A DNA stretch of 60,086 nt, counting the filler, from Nemertoderma westbladi (lineage: Eukaryota > Animalia > Xenacoelomorpha): assembly GCA_032718475.1 (NCBI GenBank). It is 3 parts of 3 records of this genome, joined end to end, with 100 filler letters (N's around TTAATTAATTAA, not from the genome) between each part and the next. Parts side by side here need not be neighbours in the genome. Positions count along the whole stretch, not along the records: positions 39,643 to 60,086 come from JAUCBJ010003219.1; 2 more parts are not named here. One strand, written 5' to 3'. Made by a program: the position numbers and the translations under genes. Below are positions 9,471 through 59,067 of this stretch, one piece after another. How positions within the stretch are numbered: position 1 is the stretch's first letter; the number at the start of each line of letters is the position of its first letter. The notes under the pieces were generated by a model. The model worked only from the letters and a program-made list of their open reading frames with translations, did not search any database and was not told the origin of the DNA.

Positions 9471-9622
9471 AACAACTTACTTATTCCCCAGAAGTTAGTT
9501 ATTTTCCCAGTTATTTAACCCTTGGGCAGGAACACCCTCGGGCTTCGCCCTCGGGTTGTTTCCTGCCCGCGGGTTAAATAACTGGGAAAATAACTAACTT
9601 CTGGGGAATAAGCATAGTTGTT
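9471..9622. repeat. Near-perfect ~150-bp palindrome, MITE-like
   Basis: TTATTCCCCAGAAGTTAGTTATTTTCCCAGTTATTTAACCC is matched by its exact reverse complement; centre is GGGC-TTC-GCCC. Confidence 0.8.
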
Positions 9623-12606: not shown

Positions 12607-12968
12607 TAGCGATTACCTCCTGCACGATGAATAGATGCCTTTTATTATTCCTATCCCTTTTTTTTTATCACATTTTAGCTCATATCACATTTTATCAAAA
12701 TTAGTATTGTTGTCTTCTTAATTTGTTTTTTTAGAGTAGCATTATCATCTGCAGGCCCTTCTTGCTCGCCACCCCCACACAAACTTATTTAGGTTATATA
12801 AAATGTCCCATTATTCTTATTATTGTAATATTATGTCCAGATTGCTTTTGTATTTTACTATTAAAAATGCAGGATATTGCAATAATTAGTCAAAACATGG
12901 GGGTAACATGTTTGGTAATAGCACCACATTTTTGTCAATATCTACATCTTGATCATTTTTATTGTAGC

Positions 12969-21138: not shown

Positions 21139-21216
21139 CTGTTTAGAGTATTTTTATATTTTAGAAACTGTGATTTTGTATATTTTATAGACTTAAATCC
21201 CATTTTCTGGGAGCGG

Positions 21217-22405
21217 TGTAAAAGCTTTTGTGGGATAACTGATTCGTTTGCCTTGTTGGCCAGTTCCCCCCCAGTCGCTAAGAATACTCTCAAAGTGATC
21301 TATAACTAAAAATAGTGCAAGTTACCAGCTTATTGGCTGATTTGCTGTACGCAGGCATCTGGGCTCTGTTTAATCGGCCAACAAGCCTAGGGAGGTTGCG
21401 TCATAGCCTTGTTTTGTATCTCCCAATAGAATTTGAGTTATCCTTGATTTTGACCTATCACAGAGTACTGAACTGAAAATTTCCTATCTCACTGCTCTTT
21501 CTCTGTGTTGAACGGGAGCTTCGTGGAATAAGGGAGTTGGTATCCTCGTATAGAGCAGTAGTCACGAGCTTTTCAAAGCCACGAAAGAACGGCTTTGTAG
21601 TGTTTTATGCTTTCTGCTTTTTAGCTCAACACTAGGAGGTTTAATTATAAGGACATATATCCTTTAACTGACCTGGCGGCTGACCAAACGCACCTGATGA
21701 CTGATTGATTGTCTTAACTCAAAACAACTGGCACGATTTATCTGTCAATACTGTGTACTGCTATTTGTTGTCGGTTATTCATTATATTTGTTGATGAATT
21801 ATTATATTGGAATAACGAGAAATAACCCCGACACCCAATATTCTTGATATACCGAAGGTAAGAGAGAAAGGTTATCAATAACGATTGTGACTTATGTTAA
21901 AGTGGTTTGAAGTGAATCTAATGTTATTTGATAGACCCTACATGAGTCAGTCTGTGTTCCTTTTATATGTGACTAAAATCAGTGAAGATTGGCAGATTAG
22001 TGTGCAGTATTGTGCAGCATCTGTTAAAGAAGCATTTCCTAAAGAATGTGCCATATATGTGAATTATAATTAAGCCATATCGTTGTGAGTAGTTTAAGTC
22101 ATAACTCTGTTTATATAGATAAAGCGCCACGTCCTAAAGGAACTGTTAATATTCCCGAAGGTAAATAATATTGTCAGAGATTATATAATACTGTCAGTCG
22201 AATAATACATTAAGCTTACATAGCAATAAAATTAAACCGTCGAACCCAATCTCCCGGGAATATCCAGCGGGTGAATGGTCGCGCACGGATTGGTTTCGAC
22301 TAGTGTAGTGAATCAAATACTTGTCATAGGCTAAAAAGCGATTTAATATCTAGAAGACATCTTAATTTGGCGGGTTAAACTGCCAAAGGTCTGAAAGCGC
22401 GAACA
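21217..22405 (+). mobile_element. LTR copy 2 (3' LTR, 1189 bp)
   Basis: TGTAAAAGCTTTTG...AAAGCGCGAACA preceded by GGGAGCGG; homologous to the other two copies. Confidence 0.88.
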
Positions 22406-24675: not shown

Positions 24676-26646
24676 CTACTTTGTTAATGAGTTTAAAACG
24701 TCAACAATCAAACTTATCCTATCTGGATTGGCTAATATTCTTGGCATCTTGAATTGTCCAGAAAATGATAAAGTATTAGCCTGAAGAATTCGATCTTTGT
24801 AACAATTAAAAAACCCAGTAGGAACTTGTCTTATTTCGACCTTATCAATAGTACCAGCCCTTCGACAATTTCGGTATCCCAAACTGACATTCATTAAATT
24901 GTTATCAATAAGAGCTGCATCATCGTCTGTCAACAATCGGTTTGCTTCGATAAACAACAAATAATAATAAGGACCATCAGTATCACCCCTCAGGATAGAA
25001 ACAAATAGCTTGTTCTGTACAACAATGTAATCCCTTACTTGGCAGTCCTCCCAAACATTCATACTATCTGATAGAGCGGTAACAATATCATCCTCATTGA
25101 CCATTTCACCGGATTCATTGAGTAGTTGGTTGTCACGGTAACAGTAGTCAAGGATAGGTAACTGGTCGTAGAACCCTGTAACTCTGAACACATCGAACAT
25201 TCTATATCGAACAAGACCTGTCATACGGGAAGTTATTACAACCTCATACTTACAACCAACTTCCAGTTGATCGAGGAATTTCGTTCCCACAATGTCATCG
25301 CCCATTGGATTGTCCTTACCATCCACTGGAATGAACTCTAAGAAAGCTGAGTCAGGATGTGCCACATACTGGTCATTTGGGATAATTCCGGGCACAGAGA
25401 ACGCCATAAATAGGCCTCCTAACTCAGAAGCGCCATAGGCACTAGAAACAATTGGTAACCCTTTTGTGTATCTTTTCCCGAGGTTGATAGCATATATTTT
25501 CATCGCTCCAGTGGATATACCAACAATTCCGTTCAGATATGGCCACAAGCGTGTTGCAATGCCAATAAATCCCTTATCAAACTCTTCCTTACATTCCGCA
25601 ACCCTTTTCAATCTATATTCTCGACTTACGCCTTGAAGATACCCATTGAGATTCGATCTCATTTCATCAGAAACCTCCAAGCGTGAATTTAGTTCACCTT
25701 TAGCAATGTCATATATAATGCTATTCCACTTCTGTTCGATTACTACAAAAAAATCATAAGCATTCGATATAAAACCACCATTTATAACAACAACATTTTT
25801 ATCCATTAATGCAAAAACAGCGTGAACATAGAGTGAATCTTGCTCATTGCGCAAGTAGTATGCATCCATTGGGGAGGTCTTCGGTACTGCTTCGAATTTG
25901 TGACCTCTACTGGAGATTGGACAAATTGGCAATCCAAAATCGTTAGTTGGGAAACTCGGTGGGGGAGCTTTAATTAAGAATGTCATCAAACCGGTATTTG
26001 AACGTAAAATGTGAGCTAGGGAGTAGCATGCCATTGGATACCCACCACTGAAGGCGCATCTTAGTGTCAGATTTTGGGCAGGAAAACTTTTATTGATACC
26101 ACTTGTCCCAGATGTTACTGCTAAAAATGCTGGTTTACCTGGAAACAAGACATCAGCAATGTTTTTAGAAGCTTTATCAATGTAAGCTGTGTAGTCGGCA
26201 TATGTTGTAATGGGTGTAAGCTTGGCGAATTCCTCTCGAGTTTTGATTCGTTGGGGAATGTTATCCCTGGCATATTCAGTATCTTTAAAATCGTGAAGGA
26301 AATTTAACAGATAGCGTTTTTGAACTTCGGCAATATTAATGGAAGTTTTATCCAATCGCCACTTACCAATAATGGACATACATTTCATTATAATTACCAA
26401 GAAGTAATTTTTGAGCATTGTAGATATTGAACAAATAGGACTAGGATGGCCAATACTGATATGGAGTATTACCAGACCATAAATACAGGACAAACCAGAA
26501 ACAATTCCTTTAATTAATAATATTATAATAATTCCTCCGGAATCCAAATAATATCCGATTAGTATACTGATAGCAATAGCAAGGAGGCCTTGTAATTGTA
26601 GCGAGTATTTTCTTTCCATAATCCTTTTTATGTGTCCATTTGGCAT
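24676..26646 (-). CDS. GHDC: Single-ORF GH3 domain-containing protein (GHDC-like, ANL-superfamily acyl-amido synthetase fold), 656 aa, hydrophobic N-terminus
   Basis: GH3 motifs PITTYADY, FLAVTSGTSG, YGASE, FLEFIP, YEVVIT, GLVRYRMFDVFRVTGFY and C-terminal QFKMPR; uninterrupted frame. Confidence 0.9.
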   Translation of the reverse strand: MPNGHIKRIMERKYSLQLQGLLAIAISILIGYYLDSGGIIIILLIKGIVSGLSCIYGLVILHISIGHPSPICSISTMLKNYFLVIIMKCMSIIGKWRLDKTSINIAEVQKRYLLNFLHDFKDTEYARDNIPQRIKTREEFAKLTPITTYADYTAYIDKASKNIADVLFPGKPAFLAVTSGTSGINKSFPAQNLTLRCAFSGGYPMACYSLAHILRSNTGLMTFLIKAPPPSFPTNDFGLPICPISSRGHKFEAVPKTSPMDAYYLRNEQDSLYVHAVFALMDKNVVVINGGFISNAYDFFVVIEQKWNSIIYDIAKGELNSRLEVSDEMRSNLNGYLQGVSREYRLKRVAECKEEFDKGFIGIATRLWPYLNGIVGISTGAMKIYAINLGKRYTKGLPIVSSAYGASELGGLFMAFSVPGIIPNDQYVAHPDSAFLEFIPVDGKDNPMGDDIVGTKFLDQLEVGCKYEVVITSRMTGLVRYRMFDVFRVTGFYDQLPILDYCYRDNQLLNESGEMVNEDDIVTALSDSMNVWEDCQVRDYIVVQNKLFVSILRGDTDGPYYYLLFIEANRLLTDDDAALIDNNLMNVSLGYRNCRRAGTIDKVEIRQVPTGFFNCYKDRILQANTLSFSGQFKMPRILANPDRISLIVDVLNSLTK

Positions 26647-27583
26647 GAAAGAGTCTAGTTTTATTGTTTAACAAAGATAATTCAGTTAGCAATGATAAAA
26701 CTTAACTTATTAATTAATAATAATTTATTGTCGTAGAAATTTAGCTACTGATATACTTTATAAACTAACATAAATGCGTACAGTACATTGGTCAGCAGAA
26801 TAATATCAAATGATTACTACTGTATTCCTTAGTTACTAATTAGCCCATCCTTATTGGCGATGGCGACTAGTTTAAATATATATTCAGTGTTTGGCACTTC
26901 TGCATTACGGTAGATGATACTTCTTCTGGTTTGACATTGATATTGGTCGATCTTGTCGTCCATGCGTATAACAATAGGATGAAATATTAGTAACTGATTG
27001 AACTTCAATCCGGAACAGCCTGGTCTGGTCATATAATAATCAACAGTGAGTGATAACTGCCGAGTTCCCCCACTCAATTATATTTCCGACTTTTGACAGT
27101 CTACACCAATGTACCAAGTATATTATTTTGTTACTCAATCATATTACCTATTCTACCTAATTACTGAAATATAAAAACTGCCAGAATGTCAATTGGCGTG
27201 CTGATATAGGGAAAATTTGCGAATCTGAATAATTTATATGTTTCGCGTCATTACAGCCTTATTCCTTTGATTGGTAGGTCTTGCAGTAAATCAACCTTAA
27301 CTCTAAGTCATGAGGCTCTAATCTAAGAAATTTTATGTAATTTCGGACATTACTATATTCAAAAAGAATTGGAGTTGAGATGTTAATGAGAAATGAGTTA
27401 ATGCAACTGTAATTATAAATATGTAATATTATGGTGTTGTTCAGAAATGGAAAAAATGAGAAAGCGCGTCACAGGGGGTTGAACCAGCGCTATACGTACG
27501 TTTTCAGCCTATCAGGCCTCATCAGTAGCACTAACCAGTTCAGCCACTTGCCCCTGACATTCACTCTCCCACCTAATCGACTT

Positions 27584-29774: not shown

Positions 29775-30388
29775 TTAATGTAGCAGGGTTTTAAAACCAA
29801 ATGTTGCCATATTCACAATGTTATAGGCTTTCACAGGGGTAGTCTTCGGAGCTATTTTAACTTGACTTACCCTACTGGTGATGGGACAAACAGGCAAGCA
29901 ATAATCTTTGATCGGGATTATTTTTGGGGGCACCTTAGCGAGCAAAATGTTTAGGCCGGAATGTGATCCACATATATGTGTAAAGCTATAGCATGCCAAC
30001 GGAAACCCAACGGAAACTCACCACCTGATTATTGTCATATTTTGCACAGGAAAATGTTTGTTGTTCCAGAGGTTACTGCTAAGAATGCTGGTTTACCTGG
30101 AAACAAGGCATTAGCAATGTTTCTAGAAGCTTTATCAATGTAAGCTGTGTAGTCGGCGTATGTTGTAATGGGGGTAAGCTTGGCGAATTCCTCTCGTGTT
30201 TGGATTCGTTGGTGTATTTTATCTCTGGAATATTCAGTATCTTTAAAATCGTGAAGGAAATTTAACAGATAGCGTTTTTGAACTTCGGCAATATTAATGG
30301 AAGTTTTATCCAATCGCCACTTACCAATAATGACAATAATGGCAATAATAACGAACAGTAAGCAACAATAGGCAATAATAAACAACAA
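29775..30388 (-). pseudogene. Partial GH3-domain paralog, disrupted and 3'-truncated
   Basis: IIGKWRLDKTS...FLAVTSGT is nearly identical to the full gene; the frame breaks near 30035-30000 and a diverged CYSFTHI...PKTTPVKAY segment follows, then homology ends. Confidence 0.85.
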
Positions 30389-31034: not shown

Positions 31035-32112
31035 TTAGCCAGATAATATACACATACGCCAATATTGGTTACACCTTGTCATATAATTGATCACAATGTA
31101 GTTCAGTTTTTAGCACAATATTAGTTAGCCAGATAATATACACACATACGCCAATATTGGTTACACCTTGTCATATAATTGATCACAATGTAGTTCAGTT
31201 GATAGCACAATATTAGTTAGCCAGATAATATACACACACGCCAATATTGGTTACACTTTGTCATATAATTGATCACAATGTACTTCAGTTGTTAGCACAA
31301 TATTAGTTTGCCAGATAATATACACACAGACACCAATATTTGTTACACTTTGTCATATAATTGATCACAATGTAGTTCAGTTGATAGCACAATATTAGTT
31401 AGCCAGATAATATACACACAGACACCAATATTTGTTACACTTTGTCATATAATTGATCACAATGTAGTTCAGTTGATAGCACAATATTAGTTAGCCAGAT
31501 AATATACACACAGACACCAATATTTGTTACACTTTGTCATATAATTGATCACAATGTAGTTCAGTTGTTAGCAGAATATTAGTTAGCCAGATAATATAAA
31601 CACACACTCGCTAATATTGGTTACACCTTGTAATATAATTGATCACAATGTAGTTCAGTTGATAGCACAATATTAGTTAGCCAGATAATATACACACATA
31701 CGCTAATATTGGTTACACCTTGTCATATAATTGATCACAATGTAGTTCAGTTTTTAGCACAATATTAGTTAGCCAGATAATATACACACTCGCTAATATT
31801 GGTTACACCTTGTCATATAATTGATCACAATGTAGTGCAGTTGATAGCACAATATTAGTTAGCCAGATAATATACACACTCGCTAATATTGGTTACACCT
31901 TGTCATATAATTGATCACTATGTAGTTCGTTGATAGCACAATATTAGTTAGCCAGATAATATACACACACGCCAATATTGGTTACACCTTGTCATATCAT
32001 ATAATTGATTACACTGTAGTTCAGTTGTTAGCACTTGTAATATTATATAGTTAGCCAGATAATATACACACACACCAATATTGGTTACACCTTGTCATAT
32101 AATTGATCACAA
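31035..32112. repeat. ~90-bp AT-rich tandem repeat, about 12 copies
   Basis: Unit AGCCAGATAATATACACAC...CCAATATTGGTTACACCTTGTCATATAATTGATCACAATGTAGTTCAGTTGATAGCACAATATTAGTT; first two starts at 31037 and 31127. Confidence 0.95.
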
Positions 32113-32869
32113 TTACTACAATACACCTAACAGTAATCGGGTGGAAGCGATACACCTAACAGTAAACGGGTGGAAGTGATACACCTAACATGTATATTTA
32201 CTATATATTCCCATTGCAGCTGCATGGGGGCGCAAGGTAAAAAAACACACTGAAAATTTATCTGGCAAATTAAATTCACCTAACATAGCTTGGAACTTTG
32301 GGATATGATTTTTTCGTGATTTGAGACAACTGTTAGCGGAAAGTGTTAGCACAATTGCAAAGTTAGCACAATGATTGTGGGAATCTGGCGAAATGTTAGG
32401 TGTATTACGCTTTAGCACGCGCAGCACTTTCCAACTTTAACTGCTACTGCCTGCCTGCTTAGGCCTACAGATTTAGATATTATGTCCAGACCAAGATTAG
32501 ACCCTCCTTGCTGCCAGCCCAGCCCCTGTCTGTAGAGGTGACAATAACTAGTCAAATAGACATATACCGACGTAATCAGTTGTAATAATGATAAGGCATT
32601 GATGCCTAACAGCATAATTCAGTCAGCAGTTATGGAATGCCAAAAGTGCCAGTAGTGACGTAGTACAGTGCAATGCACATACCACATACAGAATAATACA
32701 CTACATTACCGGTCCAGTACCAGACTGCCGTAGTACTGCTGTACTGAAATAGAAAGAAGTGCGCTGGCTGGCACTTAAATTATCGTGCTAAATAATTTTT
32801 TTTAGGATGGCTAAAACGTCTGTCCTTATCTGATCTCACGGTATCTGACACTTGTTCCACCTTGGTTCA

Positions 32870-41555: not shown

Positions 41556-41932
41556 GTGGCCCTCATTAGACAATGTTCCTAAGGGCCATTTAAAAGGAAG
41601 TGGCCCATTCATGACAATGTCCAATTTGAGCCACTTAAATATAAAATAGCCCTCAGTAGTGAGTAGACAATGTTCGTAAGGGCCATTTAAAAGGAAGTGG
41701 CCCATTTAAGACAATGTCTCATTTGAGCCACTTAAATGTAAAATGGCCCTCAGTAAACAATGTTTGTAAGGGCCATTTAAAAGGAAGTGGCCCATTCAAG
41801 ACAATGTCTCATTTGAGCCACTTAAATGTAAAATGGCCCTCAGTAAACAATGTTTGTAAGGGCCATTTAAAAGGAAGTGGCCCATTTAAGACAATGTCTC
41901 ATTTGAGCCACTTAAATCTAAAATGGCCCTAG
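41556..41932. repeat. ~90-bp tandem repeat, 4 copies, plus a dispersed copy at ~42254-42360
   Basis: AAGGGCCATTTAAAAGGAAGTGGCCCATT...GACAATGTC...TTTGAGCCACTTAAAT recurring. Confidence 0.9.
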
Positions 41933-43671
41933 ATGGCAATAGATACGAATTGATTTCTACATCTTGTTTCTCGCATTACATGTGTTTTACGTTGGTTCTG
42001 AATTCATTGGAATAAATAAAAACGGCTTTAGACATTTCAAATTGTATTTTTCGGAGGTGTGTGCCAAATTAATAATAAACAAAACTAATAACAAAATTTT
42101 AATAAAAAAAACTTCCCAAGAAATTGGAATATTTATAATCAGCGCCCCAGAAAACCTAAAAATGTGATTTTAAGCACGCTAATAAGAGTAAATTTTTTAT
42201 TATTATTTCCGGTATGAATAGGGTTAAAGGTGTAAAAAGGGTAAAAAGTTAAAGTGGCCCATTCAAGACAATGTCTCATTGGAGCCACTTAAATGGCCCT
42301 CAGTAGACACTGTTCCTAAGGGCCATTTAAATTGGTCTGGGTCCTTCAAGACAAATCTCCCATTGGATACACGCAATGAAGGAAATGTCATATCATAGCA
42401 TAGCATAGCATAGCATAGTATAATACCATAGCATACATACATAACATAACATAATGCATAACTATATAATAATTCAGCTGGTCGAGACAATGACAAATAT
42501 AGAATAGGCCCTATAACAATATTATAGATATAGAATAATAATGAAATTTATAGAGGCACATAAATAATGGCTATAATAATGTAGCACATACTGAATTTGT
42601 AAGGCTGAAGTGTTTTCAATACTAACTGCTAATGGATTATATTCCTGTCGCTAGAATATCGTTTCTAGTAGTCGTGAAATGTTAGGATACATACCTAACA
42701 TAACATCTACAGTTAGTTATCATAGCATGCATAGCATACATCTTATATCAGCAAACCAAACATAAACTGTAGCATGCCCTAAGACTAAGGGTCGGACGAT
42801 ACCATGCCAAGCATAGTTATATACCATACCATACATACCTTAAATAGCATGCAACATTGTAATCCTAAAGTATATTTCCTTGTTTTTTAGGTTTCAAACT
42901 ATGTTTTGTTAAACTGTAGTGGCCGCTAAATGAATCAAGTTTCCATAATTATTCATGTGTATTCATGTTGTATTTGTGCAAATTATCAAACCTTCCGTTT
43001 GGCACAGCTTAGTGAAGTACAAGAGACGGCGAAGCACATAATAACAAAGAATCGAATATAGTGGCTGCAGATATGGTTTGACAGATGGGAGCTAGGTATA
43101 TTAGGTAGTATTTCAAGGTCTACCTTTTTTTTTTGCCTGAGCCGCTAGCGGAATGGTAAGAGCGCCAAACTGGCGGTCACCACTTCGATCCCATCTGGAC
43201 GTCATTCTCGACTTTGCTAAGCTGTGCCCAACAAAAGTTATAATAATTATTCATGAATCAATAATTATTGCTGTTCAATTTATTTCAGGGAAATTCGTTG
43301 AGTAGAAACATATGTAATTATCAGATTCTGCATTTTTGCACTTCTGTTTCTCGCTACTTTTCCTTGTTTCGGCGTCTATATTCTACCTATATTATTTTTT
43401 TTTAAAGAAAACTCTATAATTAGAGCCATTGTGTCAATTATTTTCTTCCACCACTGCGTGGAACATCGTGGTATTTATTGCTATTTCAAAATATATTTTA
43501 GAAGGAAAAAAGTTCTGGAAGGGCCATACCTCACTACTTGTTAATTAGAGCCCCCTAGTGGATCATATTAGTATTTCATTTACATCTAAGCAAGTTTGTT
43601 GGGTATGCTCAAAAGTTATATATTCGCACTGGCCCTTATCGGCCAATGCATATATATATATATATATATAT

Positions 43672-45932
43672 TCAGGAGATCAACTTCCTATGCTCAGCGA
43701 ACTGGAAATCCCTAGGATGTACATCCCCGTCCATTCGGGTCCAATCAACTACCAGCTACATATTTTCTCAGACGCTTCTAAAGTGGCCTACGGTACAGTA
43801 TTGTACATCCGATCTGTAAGTGAAAATGAAATAAATTCATCTTTCGTTTTCAGCAAAGGTAAGTTAGTTCGTACAGCCTCTGGACATTCAGTTCCTCGAT
43901 TAGAGCTCCAAGCTGCAGTTTTAGCAGCACAGGTAAGTGAAACTGTGTTAGAATCCCTAGACTTACCAATCGCTAAATGTTATTTTTGGACAGACTCTAC
44001 TGTCGTACTTGGGTACATAAACAACACCGTCAAGCAATTTCGATGTTTTGTTCACAACCGCGCTAAGTATATCCTTGATCGTACAACCAGTTCACAATGG
44101 CAACATGTACCTGGTCATTTAAACCCTGCAGATGACATTACTCGTGGGCTTACAGCAGTCAAGCTCATTAATTCACAGAAGTGGTGGCATGGGCCTCCTT
44201 TTCTCGTTCAGCCTGAGGAAACATGGACGACAGTATCAACCATATGCCCAGAAACTATCACTAATACACTAATCAATAACCCAGATGTGCTAACTTCTCA
44301 TATATTGGTATCATCTGATATTGATTATAACGATGACATCACCATGACAGACTTCTGGTTTGACATAGTTGTCGAAGAACAGACACCATACCACAATCCT
44401 GACACTGAAATAATTCTTAATGTCCACATTGATTCTAACACAGCATTTAATGCTATAGGTTCGCTTATAGCTAAACATTCGTCATGGAATAAATTACAGA
44501 CTCTGTTCGCATGGATCTTACGTCTTTGCAAGTATTCTTTAAATCCAAATTCGGTCTTAAATCTTAAAGGGAAATTTGTCTCGGTAAGTGAACGTCACCA
44601 TGCTGGACGATGTCTAATTTATTTCTCACAGAGGCAATCCTATCCCAACGAAATTCAAATGTTACTGCAATCATCCCCAGTAGCTTGCTCAAGCCCACTA
44701 GCTAATCTAGCCCCAATCCTAACTCAGGATGGTTTATTGCGGGTAGGTGGCCGCATTACCTCCGCCCCAGTATCCTACGATACAAAACTCCCTATAATTT
44801 TGAGTAAGTTACACCCACTTACAAATGTCATAGTATGGCACTGGCACATCTATTTATTACATGCCGGTCCCAACCAAGTAGTTGCCAAGGTAAGGGAATC
44901 CTATTGGATCCCTGGCCTTATCACTTTCTGCAAGTCTTTAATACGTAAGTGCTTTAAATGTCGGCAATGTAAGGCTCCACGTGTGAATCAGCTTATGGCG
45001 CCATTGCCGTCCTCTAGACTGACCCCATATGAGCCGCCATTTACGTTTTCAGCCGTTGATATGTTTGGTCCACTAAAGGTCAAATACGGGAGAGGTTCTA
45101 TAAAGCGTTATGCCTTTATCTTTACGTGCCTTAACTGTAGAGCAGTACACCTCGATGTAGCTGCTGATGCATCAGCTGATGCCTTTATCAATGTGTTCTC
45201 CCGTTTTAAAGCACAGAGAGGTTCGCCAAAGGAATAGTTTCAGACAATGGGGGAAACTTCGTAGGTGCCGATTCAGAATTACGGCAAAACCTGGAACTAT
45301 GGGAACATCAGATCGATATTGCCCTGCGCCCAAAGGGCATTACATGGAAATTTATAACACCGTACGCCCCCCATATGGGTGGTGTATATGAACGGCTGAT
45401 CCGTTCAATCAAACAAGTTCTGTTTCAGGTCCTTGGAAATTCTCTTGTCACAGATGACGTGTTAGTGACATCATTAGCAGAAGTAGAGTGCATTCTAAAC
45501 AGCCGCCCCTTGTGCCTTAGTACCGATGACCCTAAAGCTGATGAAATATTAACTCCGAACCACCTTCTATTACAGCGCCCTGCTTACAATTTACCACCAG
45601 GTCCCATCTACGACAGTGATACATACTCAACTCGTAAATGGCGCCAGGCTCAGTTACTAGCCAATCATTTTTGGACCCGCTGGGTACGCGAATACTTAGT
45701 GACACTTCAATCAAGACAGAAGTGGACACGTGTTCGCAACAACCTTGCAGTAGGCGATGTCGTATTGCTTGTAGATGAAGGTCAAACACGCAGTAGTTGG
45801 AGTGTGGGTCGTATAACGCAAGTATACCCTGATGATGTGGGGTTAATTAGATCAGTTGAAGTAAAAACCTCCTTGGGAGTTTACAAAAGACCACTTGATA
45901 AACTATGCCTCTTAGAGGAAATAAATAAGTGA
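43672..45932 (+). mobile_element. BEL/Pao pol 3' fragment (RNase H, integrase, C-terminal domain) with one frameshift
   Basis: LHIFSDAS..AYG, PRLEL, WTDS, NPAD, LRVGGR, H..H..C..C, VDMFGP; frameshift near 45232 into SDNGGNF; GGVYERLIRSIK, LNSRPL, FWTRWVREYL. The 5' end abuts a (TA)n run. Confidence 0.95.
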
Positions 45933-47588: not shown

Positions 47589-48739
47589 TTAACTTCGTCA
47601 AATACATTACTGAACAAATTACATTCCTTAAAAGTATTGTATTAATAATGTTAATCTTTGACCTTCAATGACCCTTTAGATACCAAGGAGCTTCTTATCT
47701 CCTTTGTATGGTATATCCATACTTTTAAATGTTTGTCCTCTGTGTTACATGTGTTGTCTTCTGTGCGTCTGTTTCACTCGTATGGCAACTCCATACTTTT
47801 AAACGTACGTCCTATATGTATCCTTTATGTTTATCTATCATTCGTATGGTTTACCCATACTTTTAAATGTATGTCCTGTGTGTAATCTTTGTTTTGTATG
47901 TCCTGTTCGTCCACCGAGGTAAAATATAAAGGCAAGATGTTCCTTCGATTGTTTGAAATTTTTAAGATGTTTTGAGGAAGCCCAGATATCGTGTAAAAAT
48001 TTGAAAATTTTTAAGGGGGACTGTAGTGGCGGGTCTCTCTCAAACAATAAAAATATATTATCATTACATTACCGCCCATTCTCCCTGATTATTTTTACAA
48101 ACCAATATATCTATCTCATCTCCAACATACTCATTCGACCATTAGTGGCTGCCCCCATTCACAGCCGTTTATTCTATACAGATAAACAGCTGTATTCTTC
48201 CCTTCACTCCTATTCAACCATATTAGTAGGTATCTCTACTGCGCTACAATCCTTTATTACCCATTAACCAATCAAGGCCCACCACACTGTCACCCCTATT
48301 ATTACTTCACTGTATTTCTACAGCTTACCGAGCTCAACATTACTCATTCACTATGGTTGGTCTCATTCCGCAGTTTCCCAAACGGAAACTCCCCCTATTA
48401 ACACTCTTTATTACATTGTATTCTTGACTCTTACGATATTTTACGTTTATATTATTAGATCTCTTATTATGTATTAATGTTCTTATGTTTCCGTTATCTT
48501 ATTACCCCTTACCGCTTATAATCGTATATCCAATATAATCAATATAATCTTATATATTTTCTATAATAAATATGCTCCTAATTGCCAATCAAATAAACAA
48601 ATTATTCTTCTTTATGGGACGTAACCGTGTAAACTGGGTGAAATCCATCTATAGTTGAACATATTGCAATCACATAGATCATCTTATTGTTTTATACACA
48701 AGAGCATAGCAACCGCTCTTACATGTACTACACACTTCG

Positions 48740-50415
48740 GGAGACGACGCTGTGGATCTAAACTCACCCGCCACAAATAAGTCTGTTGTGGAGATCAGAG
48801 AGAGAGACTGGAAATCTGGAACACCAGACGTCTCGCAGGGACTCTCACCTCTCCTGCAGAGAGCGATAAATCACTATAGCTCCTGGAATCGGCTCTGTAA
48901 GGCCATCGTGTACTTAAAGCGATGTTTCCACCATCATTACTCCAGGACGAAGATCGCTAGTGATACCGCTCCACCGACATCTGCCAGATACTGAGACTCC
49001 TGCAATGCTATGAAGATTCCGATAAGTATTTCCTGTTGTTGAGAAATCCACAGACGCACTTAAAGGATCGTTTCTCTAGCACAATGATAGATGGGTTAAT
49101 ACGTGTTGGAGGGAGACTAACTAATGCTCCATTGTCCTTTGACACTAAATTCCCCATACTCATTAGAAATCTTGAAATACAAACCAAGATGATTGTAGAT
49201 GTTCACAGTAGGCTTTACCATGCTGGTAGAGAACGAGTTCTTAGCGAAATTCGAGCTCGCTATTATTTTTATAAACCCCGTAGAGCTCTGAACCAAGTTC
49301 TTAGGAACTGTATACCCTGTAGGAAAGCATTTAGTAGGCCTTTAACACAGCAAGAGGCAAAATTACCTAGGGAACGCGTAAGCTTCTATGAACCACCCTT
49401 TACTAATACTGGTGTGGATTGATTTGGCCCTATTGAAGTATATCGTGCTAGGACTATAATCAAGCGATGGTGTGTCATCTTTGTCTGTATGACTTGTAGA
49501 GAGATCCATCTGGATATGGTGAACGATCTATCTACCACCAGCTTCATACTGAGTTTACGCCGACAGATTGCTCGCTTTGGAACTAGCAATACGATGAGAT
49601 TGGACAAGGGAACGAACTTCATTGGTGCCAATAATGAGATCAAAGCTTACGTTAGAGATTGGAACCAAAGACAGGTGGACGATCAGCTAAGGGTAACAGC
49701 ATCTAGCTGGACCTTCAACGCCGCCGACGCACCTTGGTGGGGAGGAAGTTGGGAGAGATTGATAAGGAGCGTGAAGACTGCATTTCACTTTATAGTGCCT
49801 TGCCGCGCGTATCTCACCGACGAACTTTTGCGGACGTTAATGGAGGAAATTGCCGCCTATCTTAACGAGAGACCGCTTATGCCAGTCTCATCGAGTCCCG
49901 ACTCCCTAGAAGCGCTAACACCCGCGCATTTCCTACTGAAGAAACCTGTCGCCATGCTCCCACGATCAGAAGTTACGGACGGAGACGAATACTGCTGACA
50001 AACTTGGCAACTTATGCAGTTATTATCCCGTCATTTCGCTGACCATTTCAAAAAATATTATCTGCCTACGCTACAACTTTGAACCAAATGGTTTGCGCAG
50101 CAGGAAAACGTCAGCGCCGGAGACATGGTACTTATTGTGGACTCAGATCTTCCACGTAAGCGGTGGCAGACAGGTCGTATCATCGAGACTCATATCTCCG
50201 ATGATGGTTTGGTGCGATCGGTAGAACTCATCGTCATGCGACGTAACTTTAAGAAACCTGGAATTGTATTCGAAACGCAACAACTCAATCGCCCAGTTGG
50301 TTGTTTATGTTTACTGGAAAGAGACCGAGAACTGACCGGAAACTATGGAAGGCAAGACACTCTTCCCACGACCACCTCCCTAATCCAACAAACATCTAGG
50401 GGCTCCCCAACGTAG
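48740..50415 (+). mobile_element. Second, decayed BEL/Pao pol fragment (integrase region) with in-frame stops
   Basis: YSSWNRL, IRVGGRL, H..H..C..C, PPFTNTGVD*FGP, DKGTNF, WGGSWERLIRSVK, LNERPL, LTPAHFL, SDDGLVRSV; a different family from 43672-45932. Confidence 0.93.
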
Positions 50416-52132
50416 CAACGTACGGAGTGAGTGTGTGACTATATTATTTTATATTTTTATTATTTTTATATTTATGTGTGTATTATTACGTAGTTTTATT
50501 ATTATAATCGTTTTCTTTGATTTTATTTAGTAGAATGTTATTTTAGCAATTATTTAGTGGACTAGTGCAATATATATATTCGCGTTTATTACTTAATTAC
50601 TTATATTATATATTAGTGCAACGGCGAGAAATAATTCTTTTGTCTTTCCTTACCGTCCGTATCATATTATAAATGCGTGACTGCAGTAAGGTGAAGTGTC
50701 CGTACTTATTAAAGTACAATAAAGCTCCTACTATATTCAAGTGTTGTTTGTGGGTGGAGTGTTGGGAATGCAAAGTTCGGATCCTCGTGTCTCGGCTAAA
50801 CCGGGCTCTGGGTAGACCTTGGAAATGACTTGCCTCTTCTCACTGACATTGCTTCTTGCGATATTGCTCTCATACCGTATATTGAATAATACGTATAGTA
50901 GCGTGATGTCCATTTAACAGTAGCGTAAAAACGCAAAATAAATCTGTTAAACCCTTTGACCATCTGTCATTCTAGTCGATTAAGATATCGCGGCACCCAC
51001 CGATATACTTGAGAGACAAAATTCTAGAATCAGTGGTTAACGTCCCCAGACAAGTTCTGGAATAAATTGGTCCCCATCTTCAATATTACATAGTTAATAT
51101 TTATAAAAATCTATTAAAACAAATGTTATAATAGAGTAAATGCATTTTAATAAACTCTAAAGAGTTTACAAACCCAGAAAATCTATAAATCGAAGTCTGT
51201 TAAAATTTGGATCCTTTGAAGTTCTGGTCGATTAAGATATCGTGGCACTTGCCGATACTCTTAAAAGGACAAATTTCCTAGAATCGAGGATCCTGGTCCC
51301 CAGACATGCTCTGGAATAAGATGGCGTCTATTTTGATGTTAAATAATGAAATTTACGGGAATAAATTTAAATTCATCTTTTAATGAATTTGATAAATTGT
51401 CATTTTTATACAATTTATAACATTCCCAAAATTCCATAAATTAATAGATCATGGGAGCGGAGATTCACCCTATTAAGTATATTAGTGTGCGAGAATCACC
51501 AATATATAGTCAATAGCCGATAAAATTCATAAAATCATATATAAAGGGGGAAATTGACAATTAAAGAATTACTATTGAATAGCATACCAGATCTGTATGC
51601 ATGAGAATTACCCTAATTCTACTGCTAGCTTTCCATAATGTCACCATAGCAGCAACCACGCTAGAATTAGAAGCGAGTTAAAAGAACAATAGAAAGCTTG
51701 CCCCATTGAATAGCATACGGAATAAATAGCACACTGCTAGTATCCAAGGATACATAATAATAACGTGGCATTCTGGAAGGCACTTGACTAACGGACAAAT
51801 GGCCCGAATGTGTACAATTTGTGACAGTTGTGTGGAATTTGTGCATTTATAGGTGAATGTTACTACTAAAGTGTGTTTACAGTAGCTAGTCGCAGTTGTG
51901 AAAGTAGCCCTACCTCTACAGTAAGAACCTGAAGTAAATCTAAGCCCTTGGGATGGACGGACAGTGGAGTGACTCGCGCTGATTATTGTTGTCGTTGTGT
52001 AGCTACTACGTTGGCGATAGGCACCGCGACAACAGTACATCGGCGCTGAGGATCTTGCGCTGTCTGGGGGCAGTGAGGGGTAGGCAGCGACGCCTAATTA
52101 AAATTTATTATAATATTGATAAACTCATATAG

Positions 52133-55100
52133 CAGCAGTTGGTAGAAGATGATCTTGGTATCAGGGAGCGATATACCTTACCGTTGCAAGCATTTGTTGA
52201 TAGCTTAATACGCGGCGATGCTAGTCCAACTACTACGGAGGACGATGGCCGTTATATCAAACCGCCCATGTCCAAGGAACAACTCACGCATGAATTGGAC
52301 TATAGAAAATTCACCGCTCGCTATACACATCGTAATGGTACGTATATGGACTTCTTAACTACTGGTCATCCTATCGATTTACACGATACGGACGATGTAG
52401 ACACCGAAAGGGAAATGGTTCTATTTAAATATCATACCCAGCGGAGTCAGAACGACAAACCGAGAATCGAACATGAGAATTCTATTCGAAACTGACTCGA
52501 AAGAGAAGACGTTGAAGAGCCGGATAAATGCAGCGACTTCAACGAATATCTGGAATTCTTGAGAGAAACATATCTCAATATTGCCAGTCAACAAAATCTA
52601 GAAACTCGATATCCTCAAGGTATACATCATGACCCTATGATAGAACTCAAACGGCTCTATTTCACTATGATGTATCTTACCGCCGATCGACCACTACCTG
52701 TTGTCCCAGATAGTTTCGAACAGATGGAGGAATATTGTAAAACTGGAGAACGATCACCCGCTTTTCCCTTACAGGATGTGCGTCTTTGGTATTATTGCGA
52801 TGAATGCCCTAGACCCAACCAACAAACTGAAAGACATAAACACCCGCGGAGATGTTGCGCTAAACATAGTTTTACTCACTATACTTACGGGAGTTTCGAG
52901 CGAAACTTATTTGACATATCACCTACGCTTGCTCGACTCAAACGTTCCTTAACTAAACCTATGATCAGAGTTCCGGAATACTCAATCAGGCCTCCTCATT
53001 CCATAGTAAGACCTCAAACTCTTGATCCTAATAGTATCACGGATCCTCCTGAACTGTACTCACTGTTCAAAAATCTTGTGTTACCCGGACAATTAATCGG
53101 TGGCACTCCGGTAGTGCACTCTCTAGATATTTGCCCATCCTACCTATCCGGATTGGGACACGGACATCTAATATCGCCATTCAACCCATACAATCGTCCT
53201 GGTTTAACCCCGATACAACCCGTCACCGAAGTCGAGGAGAGCGTTGTACGAAACGCGTTAGACGCCATTCGGCAGAAGATCGGAAAGGGAACTTACGATT
53301 GTTTAGAGAAACGCCGATTGCAGCAACAAGTCCAAGCGGTGAAGGAGTTGGCCTTACCCCAGTTCGATCGAGAAATCCAGAACCTCGAGGAAGACATCGA
53401 ACTTGGACGAACCTATTCTCTACAAGAATTTTTAGACGAACGCTTACAACGACAAGCGGAGGAAAATCAGCTCGAGGAGAAACATATCGAAATGGATGAG
53501 AGAGAAGAAGCAGCTTTAGCCCAACCAGAAGCTCAAATCCTTATGACTGATCTCTATTCCAAAACCATCATTCATCCCTCGATGGTTCCCCAAACTCTTT
53601 GCAATAGTACAACCCCAACCGGTTGATATCAACCTGAGATCTCGAGATCTCATCGCTGACGCTCCTATGTTACAGCGTCCGCCAATCGAGGCCGCTCGTG
53701 TCGATGGTATACTCGTTGAACCTCTGGGCAATCGAGCGGATCTTGTCCGTCGTATGGTATACGAGGTCAACATACGCGCTATACATTTACCGAACTCATT
53801 TTATGGGATCAAAGACCACCCTTATTATGTCAATCTAACTCAATATTATATGGTAAAACCTGAAGATCTGACACATAGTCTAAGGTTTCTACCACTAATA
53901 AATCCTCTCGACCTTGTCGAACTCGAACAATTGCAGAAACATCTGGATCAGTTAGTGAAAGTAAACTCATTTAGAAAACCCTACAATGTTTCCAGAATAG
54001 AGAAGGATATAACGACTCCGTATAATCTCGATGGATTTATTAAAACTCGATTAGTCCATTGGAATCTCGACGTATTATTCGAGGAAGAGAGAATACAAAG
54101 ATATGGAGACGTAGAGACGTATACTACACAGTATATGAAGTATAGGGATCTCCCTAACGCTAGCGAATGCGCCACCTTGTGGCATCCGGTGGGGATGACC
54201 CTAGAGAACGCCACTAAAGAGTGGAATGAAACTCTTAACATTATCGAAATGTATGGAGTTGTCACTTACGATAACGAAGGTAGCGTTCCAGTCGGAGAAC
54301 TGGGAACATAGGCGCATGATACATATACGAGGACTAGCTGGTTCTACCCACATGTTTACTCGAGTGTGTTCCGACGTGATCAATTATTCTTTTGAGACTC
54401 TCACCGAGATACAAAAGAAACTCCGACATGGACAATTCGAACTCGCGCAGCGTTACGTCACCGACACCGAGCGCAAACCGGCCCTGGGTATCGATGGATC
54501 GATGTTACCCCAGCCCGTGCTCGAGATGTTGTTTAACGAAAGAATCCTTAAAATCGGCTCAGCTGTTTATGGAGATCTCCAAAACGACTTCAGGAACATG
54601 GAGAATATCCCATATCCTTTCGTAGATTCCCAGCTGATTGCTCCCTGGGAATAAGGCCAAGGTTTCTTTCAAACTATGTATGCCAATACACCCAGCGGCA
54701 TCAATAAAGTACAACGAACCTCCATCGGACATCTTGCCTTCCAAGAATACGGATGGAATTTCAAAGTCGGAAACCCTATTAACTATCAACAAGTATATGG
54801 AGATCATTATTCTCGATTATACTTTGACGGACCATTGACCGCACCTGGCGTAGTGTATAGCTTTATGAGTGTTCCCCTTCGCCCCTCATTAGCTATATAC
54901 ACTATCTTCGAGAACGCCGCACTTGCCGGTTGGCTAGCCTATGTGTGCAGTCGTACTATACGCGCCCATCCCTTAATACTTGGAACCAAAATTTAATACT
55001 ATATACAAAAACTTAATACTTGGAAGCTAGATGAACACAATAAATTCATCCGCTTCGAATGCTTTAGCCGCTTTCTGACTCCGTTCCGTAATGTTGATAG

Positions 55101-56390
55101 TCAGTTCAAGGACCGCGCTTTGACCAAGCTCAGCCAAAGAGACTCAGCTGCTGAGAAGTTAGACAGTGCTGGATTCGCCATTTTCAAAGACGTTTTCATA
55201 CAGAACTTACATTCCTCTGTTATACAAAGACCTCGAATCCCCACGGGTTATTCTATCGTGGAAGTTCAGACACTGGGTTCGCTTGAGGAGACAGCTACAC
55301 CTACCTCAGCTATGCAATTGGAAGACGAACCAATATGCTTAGAAACCGAGGAGATTCAGCCCACAGCGTCCCGGAGCAGTGACAACGACTATGTTTTGGA
55401 ATGGTATCAAGGTCCACAATGTCTCACTGCGTACGATTATCGACATGCCAATTATGTCTCTAGGAAACGTTGCCGATTGTGCGCATCTCGAGACCATTTC
55501 ACCCCAACGTACCCTGCTCCTACTTCCATGAACAGCCTACGATGGAGATCTATTGTGCATATTGGAGACCCAATGATTTGCACATTTTCGCAGTCTGCCC
55601 CCAATTTATGACTCAATGCCATCATTGTCAGTTTAAAGGACATGCAAGTTTTGATTGCCCTTTCAATCGCGATCTGGAAAGCGTAGATGAAATGATTACT
55701 CTACGCTATATCCGAGCCTGGGAAGCGAACGCGGATTTACATTGTGAGTCACGTCATCGCTATTACCCTGGACGTGCCTACGAAGGGGTTTATGCGTTCC
55801 ACCCGTACCTATTTGCGTCCGTGGAACAAAAATCTCGCACGCCGAGTTACGAACTAATGAAACGTGTTGGCGAGAATATTTTGACCAAATTTGTTCGTAA
55901 ATATCTCAGGAACATTAACCCCAATGATCTTAATTCCTATAGCTTGATCAACTTCATCCGTCAAGATCCAGAATATGGTGACCTGTTCATCAACTCACAT
56001 CCAGAACTACAGGAGGTTCATAGACGACCTTATGAATATAGAGCCCAAGAACGCGAGTTAGAAAGAACCATCAAACCGAGGAAGTTTCTCACTACTCACG
56101 GTCCACCTACCGCTCTAGTGCAGACGACTCGTCAGGGACCAGTAAGAGCTGCTGTCTTGAAACACGCTCTGAAGGTTGTTCGACCTTGCTCCACTGAGGT
56201 TGATATCGATCAACCGGGTACCTCTACCGGCGGATACACCGACCGCAATCCTAAACCTTCCGATGCAATTGTATTGCACCCTTCACCCCGGAGTTATAGC
56301 CCTCCTAGTAAAGTGGCTTGCCCCAAAGAGAAAAGGACTCTTGCTAGCCTCAAAAAACTGTGTAAACGCCGTCCGCGTAAGAAGGACTAG
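52133..56390 (+). pseudogene. Disrupted ~1,400-aa extra ORF of LTR element copy B: unknown N-terminal half, DEDDy-like 3'-5' exonuclease, CCHC knuckles, basic tail
   Basis: ORF pieces join via in-frame stops (52493, 54652) and frameshifts (~53610, ~54300, ~54990, ~55500). Exo I-like GVVTYDNEG, Exo II-like LPQPVLEMLFNERILKIGSAVYGDL, Exo III-like AIYTIFE; collinear with 19363-21138. Confidence 0.8.
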
Positions 56391-56468
56391 TAGTTTAGAG
56401 TATTCTTATATTTTAGAAACTGTGATTTTGTATATTTTATAGACTCCAATTCCATTTTCTGGGAGCGG

Positions 56469-57616
56469 TGTAAAAGCTTTTGCGGATATAATAAGCCATT
56501 TTTCTCCGCAATATACCGTGTAGGTATTTTAGCGGACATAATAAGCGATTTTTACCCGCTATGTCTGCATGTGTGCTTTAGCGGACATAACAAGCCATTT
56601 TTGCCGCAATGCGCATAAATACTCTAAAGGCTGGAATTCAGATGACGACATCTACCAGCTGATTTACTGTACTCGTGGAACTTTTTCTTTGTTCGGCTCA
56701 GCCAATCAGAGCGATTTTCATTTTATGTGTGCTTTAGCCATACGTAAACCGTGCTAGGCATTTCAGTCTTGGTGTTTATCTTTTCTAAGCCCAGAACACC
56801 GGCTTAGGATTGTTCTGTGCTTCTGTAGAAGTTTCAGACTTTGGCCAGAACATTAGATGGCTTGGATTATCGAAACGTAAAACTATTACCATATCATATC
56901 AAACTAACATACCTCCTAATTAACTGCACTACTGTATTCACTGCATTATTTTACTGTCTGTTATTAATGGTTGTATATGTTGATGGATATATTGTTATAT
57001 TTGGAGAATACCAATAAAGAACCCTAAAACCCCAATCTTCTTGATTACTGAAGGTGAGAGGACAGGTTACCGGTAGCAATTGCGACTTACATTATAGTGG
57101 TTTTGTGTGAATTAAATGCTATTTCATAATCCCTACATGTGTCAGTTGCTATCCTCCTTATATATGATCAAATTCAGTGACTGTCGGCAGATCAGTGTGA
57201 AGTAGTGTGAAGTCGTGTGAGGTGGTGTGATTGATAATAAAGCATCTCCTAAAGAATGCGCCTTTTACAAAACTCAGAAGCCATCTAGTTGTGATTAGTA
57301 TAAGTCATAACTCTGTTTTTATACTTAAAGCGCCACGTCCAAAAGGAACTGTTAATATTTTCCCGAAAGTAAATATATTGTCAGAGATTATATAGTAACG
57401 ATCAATCGAATAATACAGTAGGTCTACAACGCAATAATAAGTCCAAGCTCCCGAATCCAGTCTCCCTTAACAGTGGGTGAATGGTCGCGCATAGACTGGC
57501 TTCGGCTAATGTTATTTCAGTGTAATAAATAATTGTTATCGGCTAAAGTCGATTTATAAATTGGAAGACACCTAAAATTGGCAGGGTAAACTGCTAAAGG
57601 TCTAAAAGCGCGAACA
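56469..57616 (+). mobile_element. LTR copy 3 (3' LTR, 1148 bp)
   Basis: GGGAGCGG (56461-56468) then TGTAAAAGCTTTTG...AAAAGCGCGAACA. Confidence 0.88.
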
Positions 57617-57769
57617 GAGTTTAAAGCTCATCCATCCCATCATAGTAGAAATGTACAGAACAACAAGAGTCCAACAAGAAATGAAAACAAAAAAGTTGGT
57701 GCCAGTTTCCAAAAAGGAAACCTAACACTCTATGGTTCTTTTCGGGGAATCTCATTGATCTAAAAAAGC

Positions 57770-59067
57770 TAAACAATAGAATTATATTAAATCGCTTCAG
57801 GGATCCCATTGAGAGACTTCTCCTTCGTGGAAATCAGAATGGGTTCTGAAAACGTCGTGGGACCATAGATCCCATTTTGGCACTTAGAAGGATAATTGAA
57901 GAGTTATCAAAAAAGAAAGACAGGCATCTGGCTGTTATCTTTGTTGACTTCTTCAAGGCCTTTGATTCAGTCTTTCACTCATGTATGTTCAGCATACTTT
58001 CATTATATGGGATTCCTGATGAAATTATTGCAGCAATCAGATCAGTATACGATGGTTCGACAACATTTGTGTCTACTTTTAGTTGATGGTGACACAGAAC
58101 CATTTGAAGTATTATGGGGAGTCTTCCAAGAAGACACCCTTGCGCCATTCTTGTTCATAATTGTGGTTGACTATGTTCTACGCATGTCCTTAGATCATCA
58201 TAATGATGACTCCACCTACTGGCTCCAGAAGTTGAGGAAATCCTGCCAAGTACCTAACTGATCTAGACTTTGCTGATGACTTAGTAGTACTCTCAGAATC
58301 ACTAGAGGGAGCCCAACGGCTCCTCAGCTCATTAGAACAGGCTGCTTCTACTGTTGGTCTTTTTATTAACCCCAAAAAGACCAACATTTTTCCAGTTAAC
58401 TTTGAAATTCCTCAGCTAGTAACTAGCTACCTAACTATAAGTAACTAACTAACTACCTATTGTAACTAGTTTCTAAGTCAGGTGAGGACCTTCAAATACA
58501 TAAGGGAAAGGCATGAGCTGCATTAAATAGGCTTTCCAGGATTTGGAAGTCACAGAGAATTAATCGGAAACTTAAGATCCGATTATTTAGAGAAGCAGTA
58601 CTCCTCTATAGGAGTCATTGCTGGGCTCTAACTGCTGAGGCCACCAAATCTCTGGATGGCACATTCACAAGAATGCTACTCCGGGTTCATTGTGTTAAGT
58701 ACAATGCACACATCTCCAACCAGACACTATATAACATTGGAGGTATCTTATTGGTTCCCCCAAGCTTGGCACTAGAACAATGTCACCTCCGCTTTGCAGG
58801 ACATTGCTTTTGCCATGAGGACCAGCCAGTGCATAATCTTGTACTTTGGCATCCACATGTAGCGGATAAGCATGGTGGACAGCCCATGACTTTCTTGAGA
58901 TGCATCTTAAAGGACACTGGCCTTGAAGATGCGGATGATTTAGCGAATGTCATGGGTGATAGGGAGTTGTGGCTGCGCAATTTTGTTGACAAGTCGGCAC
59001 AACATTCTTAAAAATTCAGCTGCAATGCAGCATGCCGATCATAGTAGTAGTAGTAGTAGTAGTAGTA
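57770..59067 (+). mobile_element. Decayed RTE-like LINE, RT through 3' end, with (TAG)n tail
   Basis: NQNGF, LALRRIIEE, FVDFFKAFDS, GVFQEDTLAPFLF, DLDFADD, LRFAGHC; several frameshifts; TAG repeat at 59042-59066. Confidence 0.88.

Follow-up and report, generated by a model that had tools for sequence, protein, structure and literature searches.

One broken copy of a high-copy LTR retrotransposon in the animal Nemertoderma westbladi carries, upstream of its 3′ LTR, a long gene (ORF3) that is under strong purifying selection. We tentatively read ORF3 as the extra third gene of what is very likely a BEL/Pao element, encoding an RNase D-like 3′-to-5′ exonuclease that would be brought to the element's RNA by zinc knuckles. 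Positions refer to the window, the whole 60,086-nucleotide stretch of DNA that was analyzed, within which the element and its relatives comprise the following:

48710 to 50415, + strand: remnant of a broken BEL/Pao pol, its 3′ part, with the integrase zinc domain, core, and DUF5641, from Pfam, pol identity, and contig depth
50416 to 52132, + strand: 1.7-kb noncoding spacer from pol to ORF3, crossed by and covered with overlapping contigs from diverged copies
52133 to 54204, + strand: N-terminal part of ORF3, ~690 codons in three stop-to-stop frames, with no recognized domain
56391 to 56468, + strand: 3′ spacer of 78 nt whose last bases are the purine tract GGGAGCGG, 92% identical to 21139 to 21216
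56469 to 57616, + strand: 3′ LTR, 1,148 nt, TGT..ACA, from within-window comparison and alignment
18310 to 22405, + strand: the whole of copy 2, from within-window comparison, frames, and alignment
18310 to 18500, + strand: N-terminal ORF3 piece of copy 2, followed by an unrelated 850 nt
19357 to 21138, + strand: open C-terminal ORF3 of copy 2, 593 codons, followed by the spacer and then the LTR
3414 to 4563, − strand: third LTR of the family, from flank alignment, without a purine tract upstream

Two diverged copies, 80% identical at the DNA level, end alike in the ORF, the 78-nt spacer, the purine tract, and a TGT..ACA LTR of ~1.15 kb. Comparison within the window aligned 54591 to 56485 with 19356 to 21233 (80% over 1,906 nt) and 52328 to 52518 with 18310 to 18500 (88%), which bears out the shared order reported in a preliminary description of this DNA; the same ORF-LTR linkage in both copies also supports its view that the ORF is cargo of an LTR element and not pol. 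The 5′ ends are missing from both ORF3-LTR copies, and the copy at 48710 to 57616 is dead. The LTR of copy 2 (21217 to 22405; 1,189 nt) has 65% overall identity to that at 56469 to 57616, and the 12-nt LTR ends, TGTAAAAGCTTT..AAAGCGCGAACA, are the same in both. Because the third LTR has no purine tract before it, the 5′ border of the LTR could be fixed. Neither a target-site duplication nor a primer-binding site was seen in its flanks, and the ORF beyond it, coiled-coil-like by eye only, had no match in searches; the idea of a 5′ LTR with gag was rejected on that account. A TG..CA LTR of this size behind a purine tract, here a short one, falls inside the BEL/Pao range of 0.2 to 1.2 kb. At position 57617 the LTR meets a LINE with no dip in contig depth, so continuous depth by itself proves nothing about the unity of an element.

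The pol remnant upstream had Pfam matches to Integrase_H2C2 (E 2.5e-8) and DUF5641 (E 1.1e-13) and was 41% and 39% identical to a Peptidase_A17-bearing pol at 43549 to 45932. Contig depth jumps from ~800 to >100,000 at bin 48601 to 48967, and the element is 5′-truncated near 48.7 kb. Whether this integrase belongs with ORF3 had been left open in the preliminary description; bridging contigs now support the linkage, and integrase, spacer, ORF3, and LTR are probably one element. Contigs of other copies join 50413 to 50521, 50325 to 51642, and 51078 to 51341/51344, one such record (X1) crosses position 50431 (50388 to 50523, 12 differences), and another (X4) crosses the ORF3 start (52037 to 52248). 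It is improbable that the ORF-LTR unit is instead a separate element next to a BEL/Pao fragment that has an LTR of its own at ~50431: a TGT does lie there behind a weak purine run, yet a search of the window for a second copy of that sequence found none, and diverged copies bridge or join across both 50431 and the ORF start. No single contig among those examined spans pol to ORF3 or covers the whole element; among the 24 of 673 loose contig ends listed, all continue, as judged by eye, as spacer variants and not as mixed flanks, and the contig records listed contain no LTR-like boundary between integrase and ORF3. The spacer itself holds a duplication (50940 to 51065 and 51193 to 51319; 74% over 128 nt).

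ORF3 (52133 to 56390; ~1,419 codons) had previously been described as an ORF of ~1,400 amino acids. That span holds, but not as a single unbroken frame: the 52-57 kb copy is divided into seven stop-to-stop frames, and copy 2 is open only over the last 593 codons and a 62-codon N-terminal piece. One continuous protein of ~1,400 amino acids would thus be read across six breaks, including a join near 53550 to 53630. Peptide motifs quoted earlier were all present in these frames when the latter were read. Between copies, dN/dS was 0.054 over 587 codons and 0.077 over the 62 N-terminal codons common to both, third codon positions took 231 of the 330 differences, and the lowest value, 0.037, fell in the C-terminal half of the exonuclease region, where amino acid identity reached 95%.

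Within ORF3, the exonuclease-like region and the parts that follow it are as follows:

54258 to 54284, + strand: candidate ExoI, D-x-E, rank 14 of 43,036 windows against bacterial ExoI columns and the best in its frame
54511 to 54642, + strand: RNase D/WRN-like ExoII segment, with an Asp at the catalytic position (GD) and a second conserved Asp (FVD)
54829 to 54945, + strand: ExoIII region with two candidate tyrosines, at 54856 (YxxxS) and 54898 (YxxxE)
55464 to 55665, + strand: Cys/His region containing one CCHC knuckle of canonical form and two variants; the reading frame changes near 55505 in the 52-57 kb copy
56298 to 56390, + strand: basic, NLS-like C-terminal tail and stop, the same in both copies

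Profile comparisons support the presence of a DEDDy (RNase D/WRN-type) ExoII segment. Its ungapped 44-residue match to a bacterial RNase D profile (E 7.5e-5, 18.3 bits) was the first of 949 native frames, compared with a best of 7.3 bits in 5,000 shuffles, and the window containing it ranked 1 of 28,801. The profiles were all bacterial, with the RNase D set giving the best score among them; the frame ranked first of 949 with four of the five (E 7.5e-5 to 0.28), was unranked with the NrnC profile, and matched RNase D in both profile builds. The ExoII Asp aligns to a column invariant in all 44 bacterial enzymes and to the GD of WRN in a printed alignment. That resemblance to WRN, seen by eye, is also what would favor a DNA exonuclease, WRN- or PolA-proofreading-like, acting on element cDNA or an integration intermediate, and DNA-acting members do exist among DEDDy enzymes (PMC5408684); given 18.3 bits for RNase D against 6.7 bits (E 0.28) for the WRN-like profile, we regard such an activity as highly improbable.

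The remainder of the motif series, as previously proposed, fared less well, ExoII being the only stretch of the region statistically above chance. The candidate D-x-E sits 256 nt upstream of ExoII, in the expected order, and both are seen in one copy only; the β2-β3 motif scores poorly (best rank 95 of 36,393). The Y-x3-D of ExoIII, whose D occurs without exception in the 44 bacterial controls, is absent: both copies have Y-x3-E or Y-x3-S, so the last Asp is lost in either register. The N-side scores of the two candidates (5.6 at 54856 and 5.7 at 54898; ranks 51 and 44 of 43,036) are alike, and neither candidate is significant (ranks 101 to 319 of 31,648). The last motif is ambiguous, with YxxxE, the register chosen in the preliminary description, favored and YxxxS possible, since the 15 residues after the Tyr, which should form a helix, contain no prolines for YxxxE and two for YxxxS; a dead enzyme ending in Y-x3-S, equal in spacing, was set aside on this ground. 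The Asp-to-Tyr gap of 77 or 91 residues, against 48 to 49 in bacteria, means that a DEDDy fold would need large insertions.

Similarity searches of the protein returned little. Word-index protein searches with the open frame of copy 2, at longer and near lengths as well, gave no match; HMMER with the 261-residue domain, read through with X, gave 0 matches among 1.84 billion representative proteins; Pfam and PDB searches with this domain found no relative; and scans of metagenome and viral contigs found no match. Three glutamine synthetase rows for the exonuclease domain (E ~0.5) were dismissed as chance. The N-terminal part (52133 to 54204) had no Pfam match and a best Atlas value of 0.76, which was not usable, and residues 1 to 200 of copy 2 likewise had no usable Atlas match. 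An AlphaFold single-sequence model of copy 2, in which the N-terminal half is missing, reached a pLDDT of 33.9. The empty protein libraries and the one significant motif block are what one would expect if the ORF, real and selected, held only a 44-residue relic or look-alike, its function lying in the unrecognized 1,100 residues. We consider this quite improbable, as an ungapped match at E ~1e-4 with both conserved Asp in register is flanked in the correct order by a candidate D-x-E upstream and a candidate Y-x3-E downstream. Neither a BEL/Pao carrier of a DEDDy ORF nor a large nuclease-knuckle fusion was found among the papers accessible to the literature searches. An exonuclease-like accessory domain has reportedly been noted in nematode Cer (BEL) elements; the literature search did not recover that report.

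Of three CCHC knuckles described initially, one stands as canonical (CX2CX4HX4C, in both copies), and the other two deviate in spacing (CX2CX5HX4C and CX2CX4HX9C in copy 2); the only Pfam match, to zf-CCHC_3 (E 0.052), was below its cut-off. RNA is the usual ligand of such knuckles, which weighs further against a DNA substrate. The NLS-like character of the tail was confirmed in composition, with 15 K/R among the last 30 residues of copy 2. Nor does the ORF show features of a membrane env, in line with the preliminary description: no hydrophobic signal, fusion, or transmembrane segment was found over eight frames (top 19-residue hydropathy, 1.31).

In the exonuclease reading that we prefer, ORF3, placed as it appears between pol and the 3′ LTR and kept there by purifying selection, would be translated from a separate, probably spliced message and would adopt a full DEDDy fold (D-x-E / D / Y-x3-E). 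The basic tail may direct nuclear import, the knuckles would recruit the exonuclease to the element's own RNA, and trimming of 3′ ends (read-through or host-added tails) would allow genomic RNA to survive and be packaged. A lesser but real possibility is that the same fold in the same element is noncatalytic, binding genomic RNA in the nucleus to export, localize, or shield it, in a CERV/Rev-like role with an Egalitarian/Exd1/Exuperantia-like build. Replacement of the last Asp by E (S in the other register), the large insertions, the basic tail, and the knuckles would all suit such a protein. In the literature, Egalitarian DEDDy residues are described as dispensable for RNA binding and Exd1 as inactive (bioRxiv 10.1101/2025.08.03.668247), and CERV, a nuclear accessory protein, as required for Cer1 RNA export (PMC10309623). 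Against this, the favored register keeps D-x-E, the ExoII Asp, the Tyr, and an acidic last residue, and constraint is strongest in the exonuclease half, a pattern yet compatible with a binding surface too.

More speculatively, a nuclear RNase D-fold enzyme with knuckle RNA adaptors might serve counter-silencing, stripping host tails or destroying targeting small RNAs, and so explain the wide spread of the family; we hold this to be unlikely. Similarly, an active nuclease turned on the host, degrading or mis-trimming piRNAs, siRNAs, or their precursors and thereby reaching high copy, seems rather unlikely. The family is very abundant in all four sequencing runs, an abundance that rests on contig depth, which is not copy number. 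MUT-7, a DEDDy enzyme, is reported to act in small-RNA production (PMC11347159), and the DEDDy-bearing rotifer elements Juno1/2 are at higher copy number, yet Vesta2/5 are not (PMC5408684).

That DEDDy extra ORFs occur in rotifer LTR elements, as the preliminary description stated, is already published: the DEDDy ORF3s first reported in PMC5408684, from bdelloid Juno and Vesta LTR retrotransposons and Terminons, show a D-to-E change and were proposed to process the ends of element RNA, and that study reported neither a clear departure from neutrality nor an activity. Selection on the present gene, its host, its probable superfamily, its knuckles, and its nuclear-type tail all extend beyond those ORF3s and bear on the role of non-env third genes in LTR retrotransposons; because the family is abundant, conservation should be readable across many copies. 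If the reading is true, retroelements captured 3′-5′ exonucleases repeatedly, which could reveal a transposon tool against small-RNA or tailing defenses.

Like the rotifer ORF3s, the gene lies downstream of pol, is RNase D-like with one D-to-E change, and has no membrane segment; unlike them, it is likely carried by a BEL/Pao element, spans ~1,400 codons that include CCHC knuckles and end in a basic tail, and is clearly held by purifying selection when copies are compared. The rotifer proteins, according to PMC5408684, are readily recognized by HHpred and have the motif DEED, whereas that of N. westbladi, if valid, is DEDE and very diverged. BEL/Pao elements are described in PMC3118150 as 4.2 to 10 kb long, with LTRs of 0.2 to 1.2 kb and env in few; the present element resembles the env-bearing ones in its integrase and DUF5641, its 1.15-kb TG..CA LTR, and a third ORF in the env position, and departs from them in that this ORF has nuclease-like and zinc-knuckle parts in place of a membrane segment. 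With RNase D, WRN exonuclease, Rrp6, MUT-7, and EXD2 (PF01612) it shares the ExoII match and, if the candidate outer motifs are valid, the motif order D-x-E, D, Y, but it falls below Pfam detection, has lost the last Asp, and has spacers 30 to 45 residues longer. Its likeness to CERV of Caenorhabditis elegans Cer1, a nuclear retroelement accessory protein with a Cys-rich part, and to Egalitarian and Exd1, in which an exonuclease fold serves RNA binding, is one of analogy only.

Both copies of the LTR retroelement in the window close alike, as the preliminary description had it: an ORF3 stop, a 78-nt spacer (92% identical between copies) ending in GGGAGCGG, and then the LTR.

52133-56390: ORF3 region (extra gene between pol and LTR), copy under study
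56391-56468: spacer
56469-57616: 3' LTR
18310-22405 (plus): copy 2
3414-4563 (minus): third LTR

Window self-comparison aligned 19356-21233 with 54591-56485 at 80% identity over 1,906 nt, the 3' part being present twice, and matched a short N-terminal piece (18310-18500 against 52328-52518) at 88% identity. The LTRs measure 1,148 nt in the copy under study and 1,189 nt in copy 2, with identical 12-nt ends; the third has the same TGT start without the purine tract. LTR identity was 65 to 69%, highest in the 3' halves. At 18500-19356, adjoining an assembly gap, copy 2 has about 2 kb of ORF3 swapped for 850 nt without a match elsewhere in the window, and a LINE-like high-copy fragment (57619-59011) begins three bases past the LTR of the copy under study.

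The frames upstream of ORF3 encode a BEL/Pao integrase with DUF5641. Contigs of four public DNA runs (X1-X4; at most three samples) cover 48.6-57.6 kb at a depth exceeding the 47.9-48.6 kb flank about 100- to 1,000-fold (X1-X3); depth alone does not link pol and ORF3, because the LTR-LINE junction also shows no dip. On a closer look at 50250-52250, a diverged contig (50388-50523, 12 differences) crosses the proposed LTR start at 50431, other copies have joints at 50413-50521, 50325-51642, and 51078-51341/51344, and a contig at 52037-52248 crosses the ORF3 start. The 24 loose ends listed, out of 673, were all, judged by eye, spacer variants in high agreement without mixed flanks. Self-comparison found no second copy of the 50431 sequence within the window. 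These data argue against a separate LTR at about 50431, which had been named as evidence against BEL/Pao linkage, and strengthen the linkage itself: integrase, spacer, ORF3, and LTR very probably form one element, the integrase-to-ORF3 span being pieced together from several contigs. A gag, an RT, and a 5' LTR of this element did not turn up.

Within 50250-52250, 39 sites have G here and A in other copies, against 10 or 11 C-versus-T sites (X1-X3; binomial p 4e-5 to 9e-5); X4 has 38 against 19 (p 0.016), and the bias disappears once all 11 kb are counted (141 sites against 133). The local bias looks like A-to-I (ADAR) editing of element RNA, fixed by reverse transcription. On the minus strand (4563-3414, then 1374-1), 2 kb past the third LTR, a charged coiled-coil-like ORF runs off the window; we take it, by eye, to resemble a BEL/Pao gag N-terminus, and searches with it gave no matches. 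The flanks of this LTR contain neither a primer site nor a target-site duplication; LTR and ORF could be the 5' end of the ORF3 element family. A second, different BEL/Pao pol fragment at 43549-45932 (Peptidase_A17, integrase, DUF5641; one frame change) has no purine tract plus TG directly after it.

In the copy under study, the ORF3 region comprises seven stop-to-stop frames, interrupted as follows.

52493 and 54652: stops
near 53550-53630, 54310, and 55505: frame changes
near 54994: short insertion

In copy 2 the frame stays open over 593 codons and ends at the same stop; the single protein of about 1,400 residues claimed earlier is therefore plausible, although we infer its continuity across the seven frames. 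Protein identity between the copies is 88%, with a dN/dS of 0.054 and 63/36/231 differences at first, second, and third codon positions (587 aligned codons). The ratio was 0.037 in the first 129 aligned codons, the C-half of the exonuclease candidate, and 0.077 in the 62-codon N-terminal piece. From these substitution patterns, ORF3 was evidently functional while the two copy lineages diverged. No ORF3 frame has a membrane-like segment, in agreement with its not being a membrane env, and the NLS-like tail is borne out by 15 K/R among the last 30 residues of copy 2. Of the three CCHC knuckles proposed, copy 2 has one in canonical form and two as variants.

Pfam gave no exonuclease match for ORF3 in 18 native frames. 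The exonuclease domain found no match in Pfam and PDB when read through with X, nor as a query against 1.84 billion representative proteins, and ORF3 had none in word-index protein searches or in contig scans and the Atlas. A single-sequence fold of copy 2 (pLDDT 33.9) was too low in confidence to show a fold. Since the library searches were blank, we made our own profiles of bacterial PF01612 proteins (13 RNase D, 31 WRN-like, 24 NrnC-like) and ran them against every native frame in the window with at least 30 residues, 949 in total. Frame 54205-54651 was ranked top by four of the five profiles and missed by the NrnC profile. The RNase D profile scored it at 18.3 bits (E 7.5e-5), with the matching frame of copy 2 as runner-up (5.2 bits); E values were 5.7e-5 for RNase D plus WRN-like, 0.012 for all proteins combined, and 0.28 for WRN-like. 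Among 5,000 shuffles, of which 3,688 scored, the maximum was 7.3 bits. The RNase D match spans 44 gap-free residues; the Asp residues of GD and FVD align with columns invariant in all 44 controls, and the ExoII segment visibly shares the register of the printed WRN sequence. The D-x-E candidate at 54258 ranked 14 of 43,036 windows, and the strand motif expected after it scored poorly. Two ExoIII candidates tied, Y-x3-S at 54856 and Y-x3-E at 54898, the latter followed by a helix without prolines; either requires 30-45 extra residues relative to bacteria. Judged by profile ranks and shuffles, the RNase D-type segment of the predicted ORF3 protein exceeds chance, and candidates for the other motifs lie in order; this supports part of the DEDDy claim, yet the strict Y-x3-D is absent, as both candidates end in S or E. 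Second among our readings, and rather unlikely, is an RNA adaptor without catalytic activity, comparable to Egalitarian, Exd1, or CERV.

The reading ranked first, as a tentative preference, has an active RNase D-like enzyme trimming the ends of the element's own RNA, because the favoured register keeps D-x-E, D, and Y together with an acid at the last position. An exonuclease fold would act on nucleic-acid 3' ends; with putative RNA-binding knuckles and a basic tail, it may serve as an accessory factor for element RNA. The slot after pol, which LTR elements express from a separate spliced message (PMC5408684), fits such a factor. Counter-defence by destruction of small RNAs ranks third and seems improbable.

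The window also holds the following features.

24676-26667 (minus): uninterrupted 663-codon ORF with a GH3 domain (Pfam GH3 E 1.9e-45)
29872-30332: partial duplicate of the GH3 ORF, 80% identity
11326-12606 (plus): ORF with Cys/His and KPDG-type tail, suggestive of a restriction-like-endonuclease non-LTR element; no Pfam match
10450-11340 (minus): LINE RT fragment (RVT_1 E 1.5e-17), back to back with the preceding ORF
12860-18207: 18-bp array, ~290 units, ending at a gap
31035-32113: ~92-bp tandem array
41557-41930: ~90-bp tandem array
9480-9612: hairpin, 53-bp arms

The literature searched yielded no BEL/Pao DEDDy case. Nematode Cer elements are reportedly a possible earlier example. Excerpts from BEL/Pao surveys mention env as the sole extra gene (PMC3118150, PMC2774666), and other sources place DEDDy ORF3s in the rotifer Juno and Vesta elements and in Terminons (PMC5408684; reviews PMC5718144, PMC6431247, PMC6338049). 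Compared with the rotifer forms, the ORF3 described here is new as a variant because of its likely BEL/Pao host, larger size, knuckle fusion, and measured selection.
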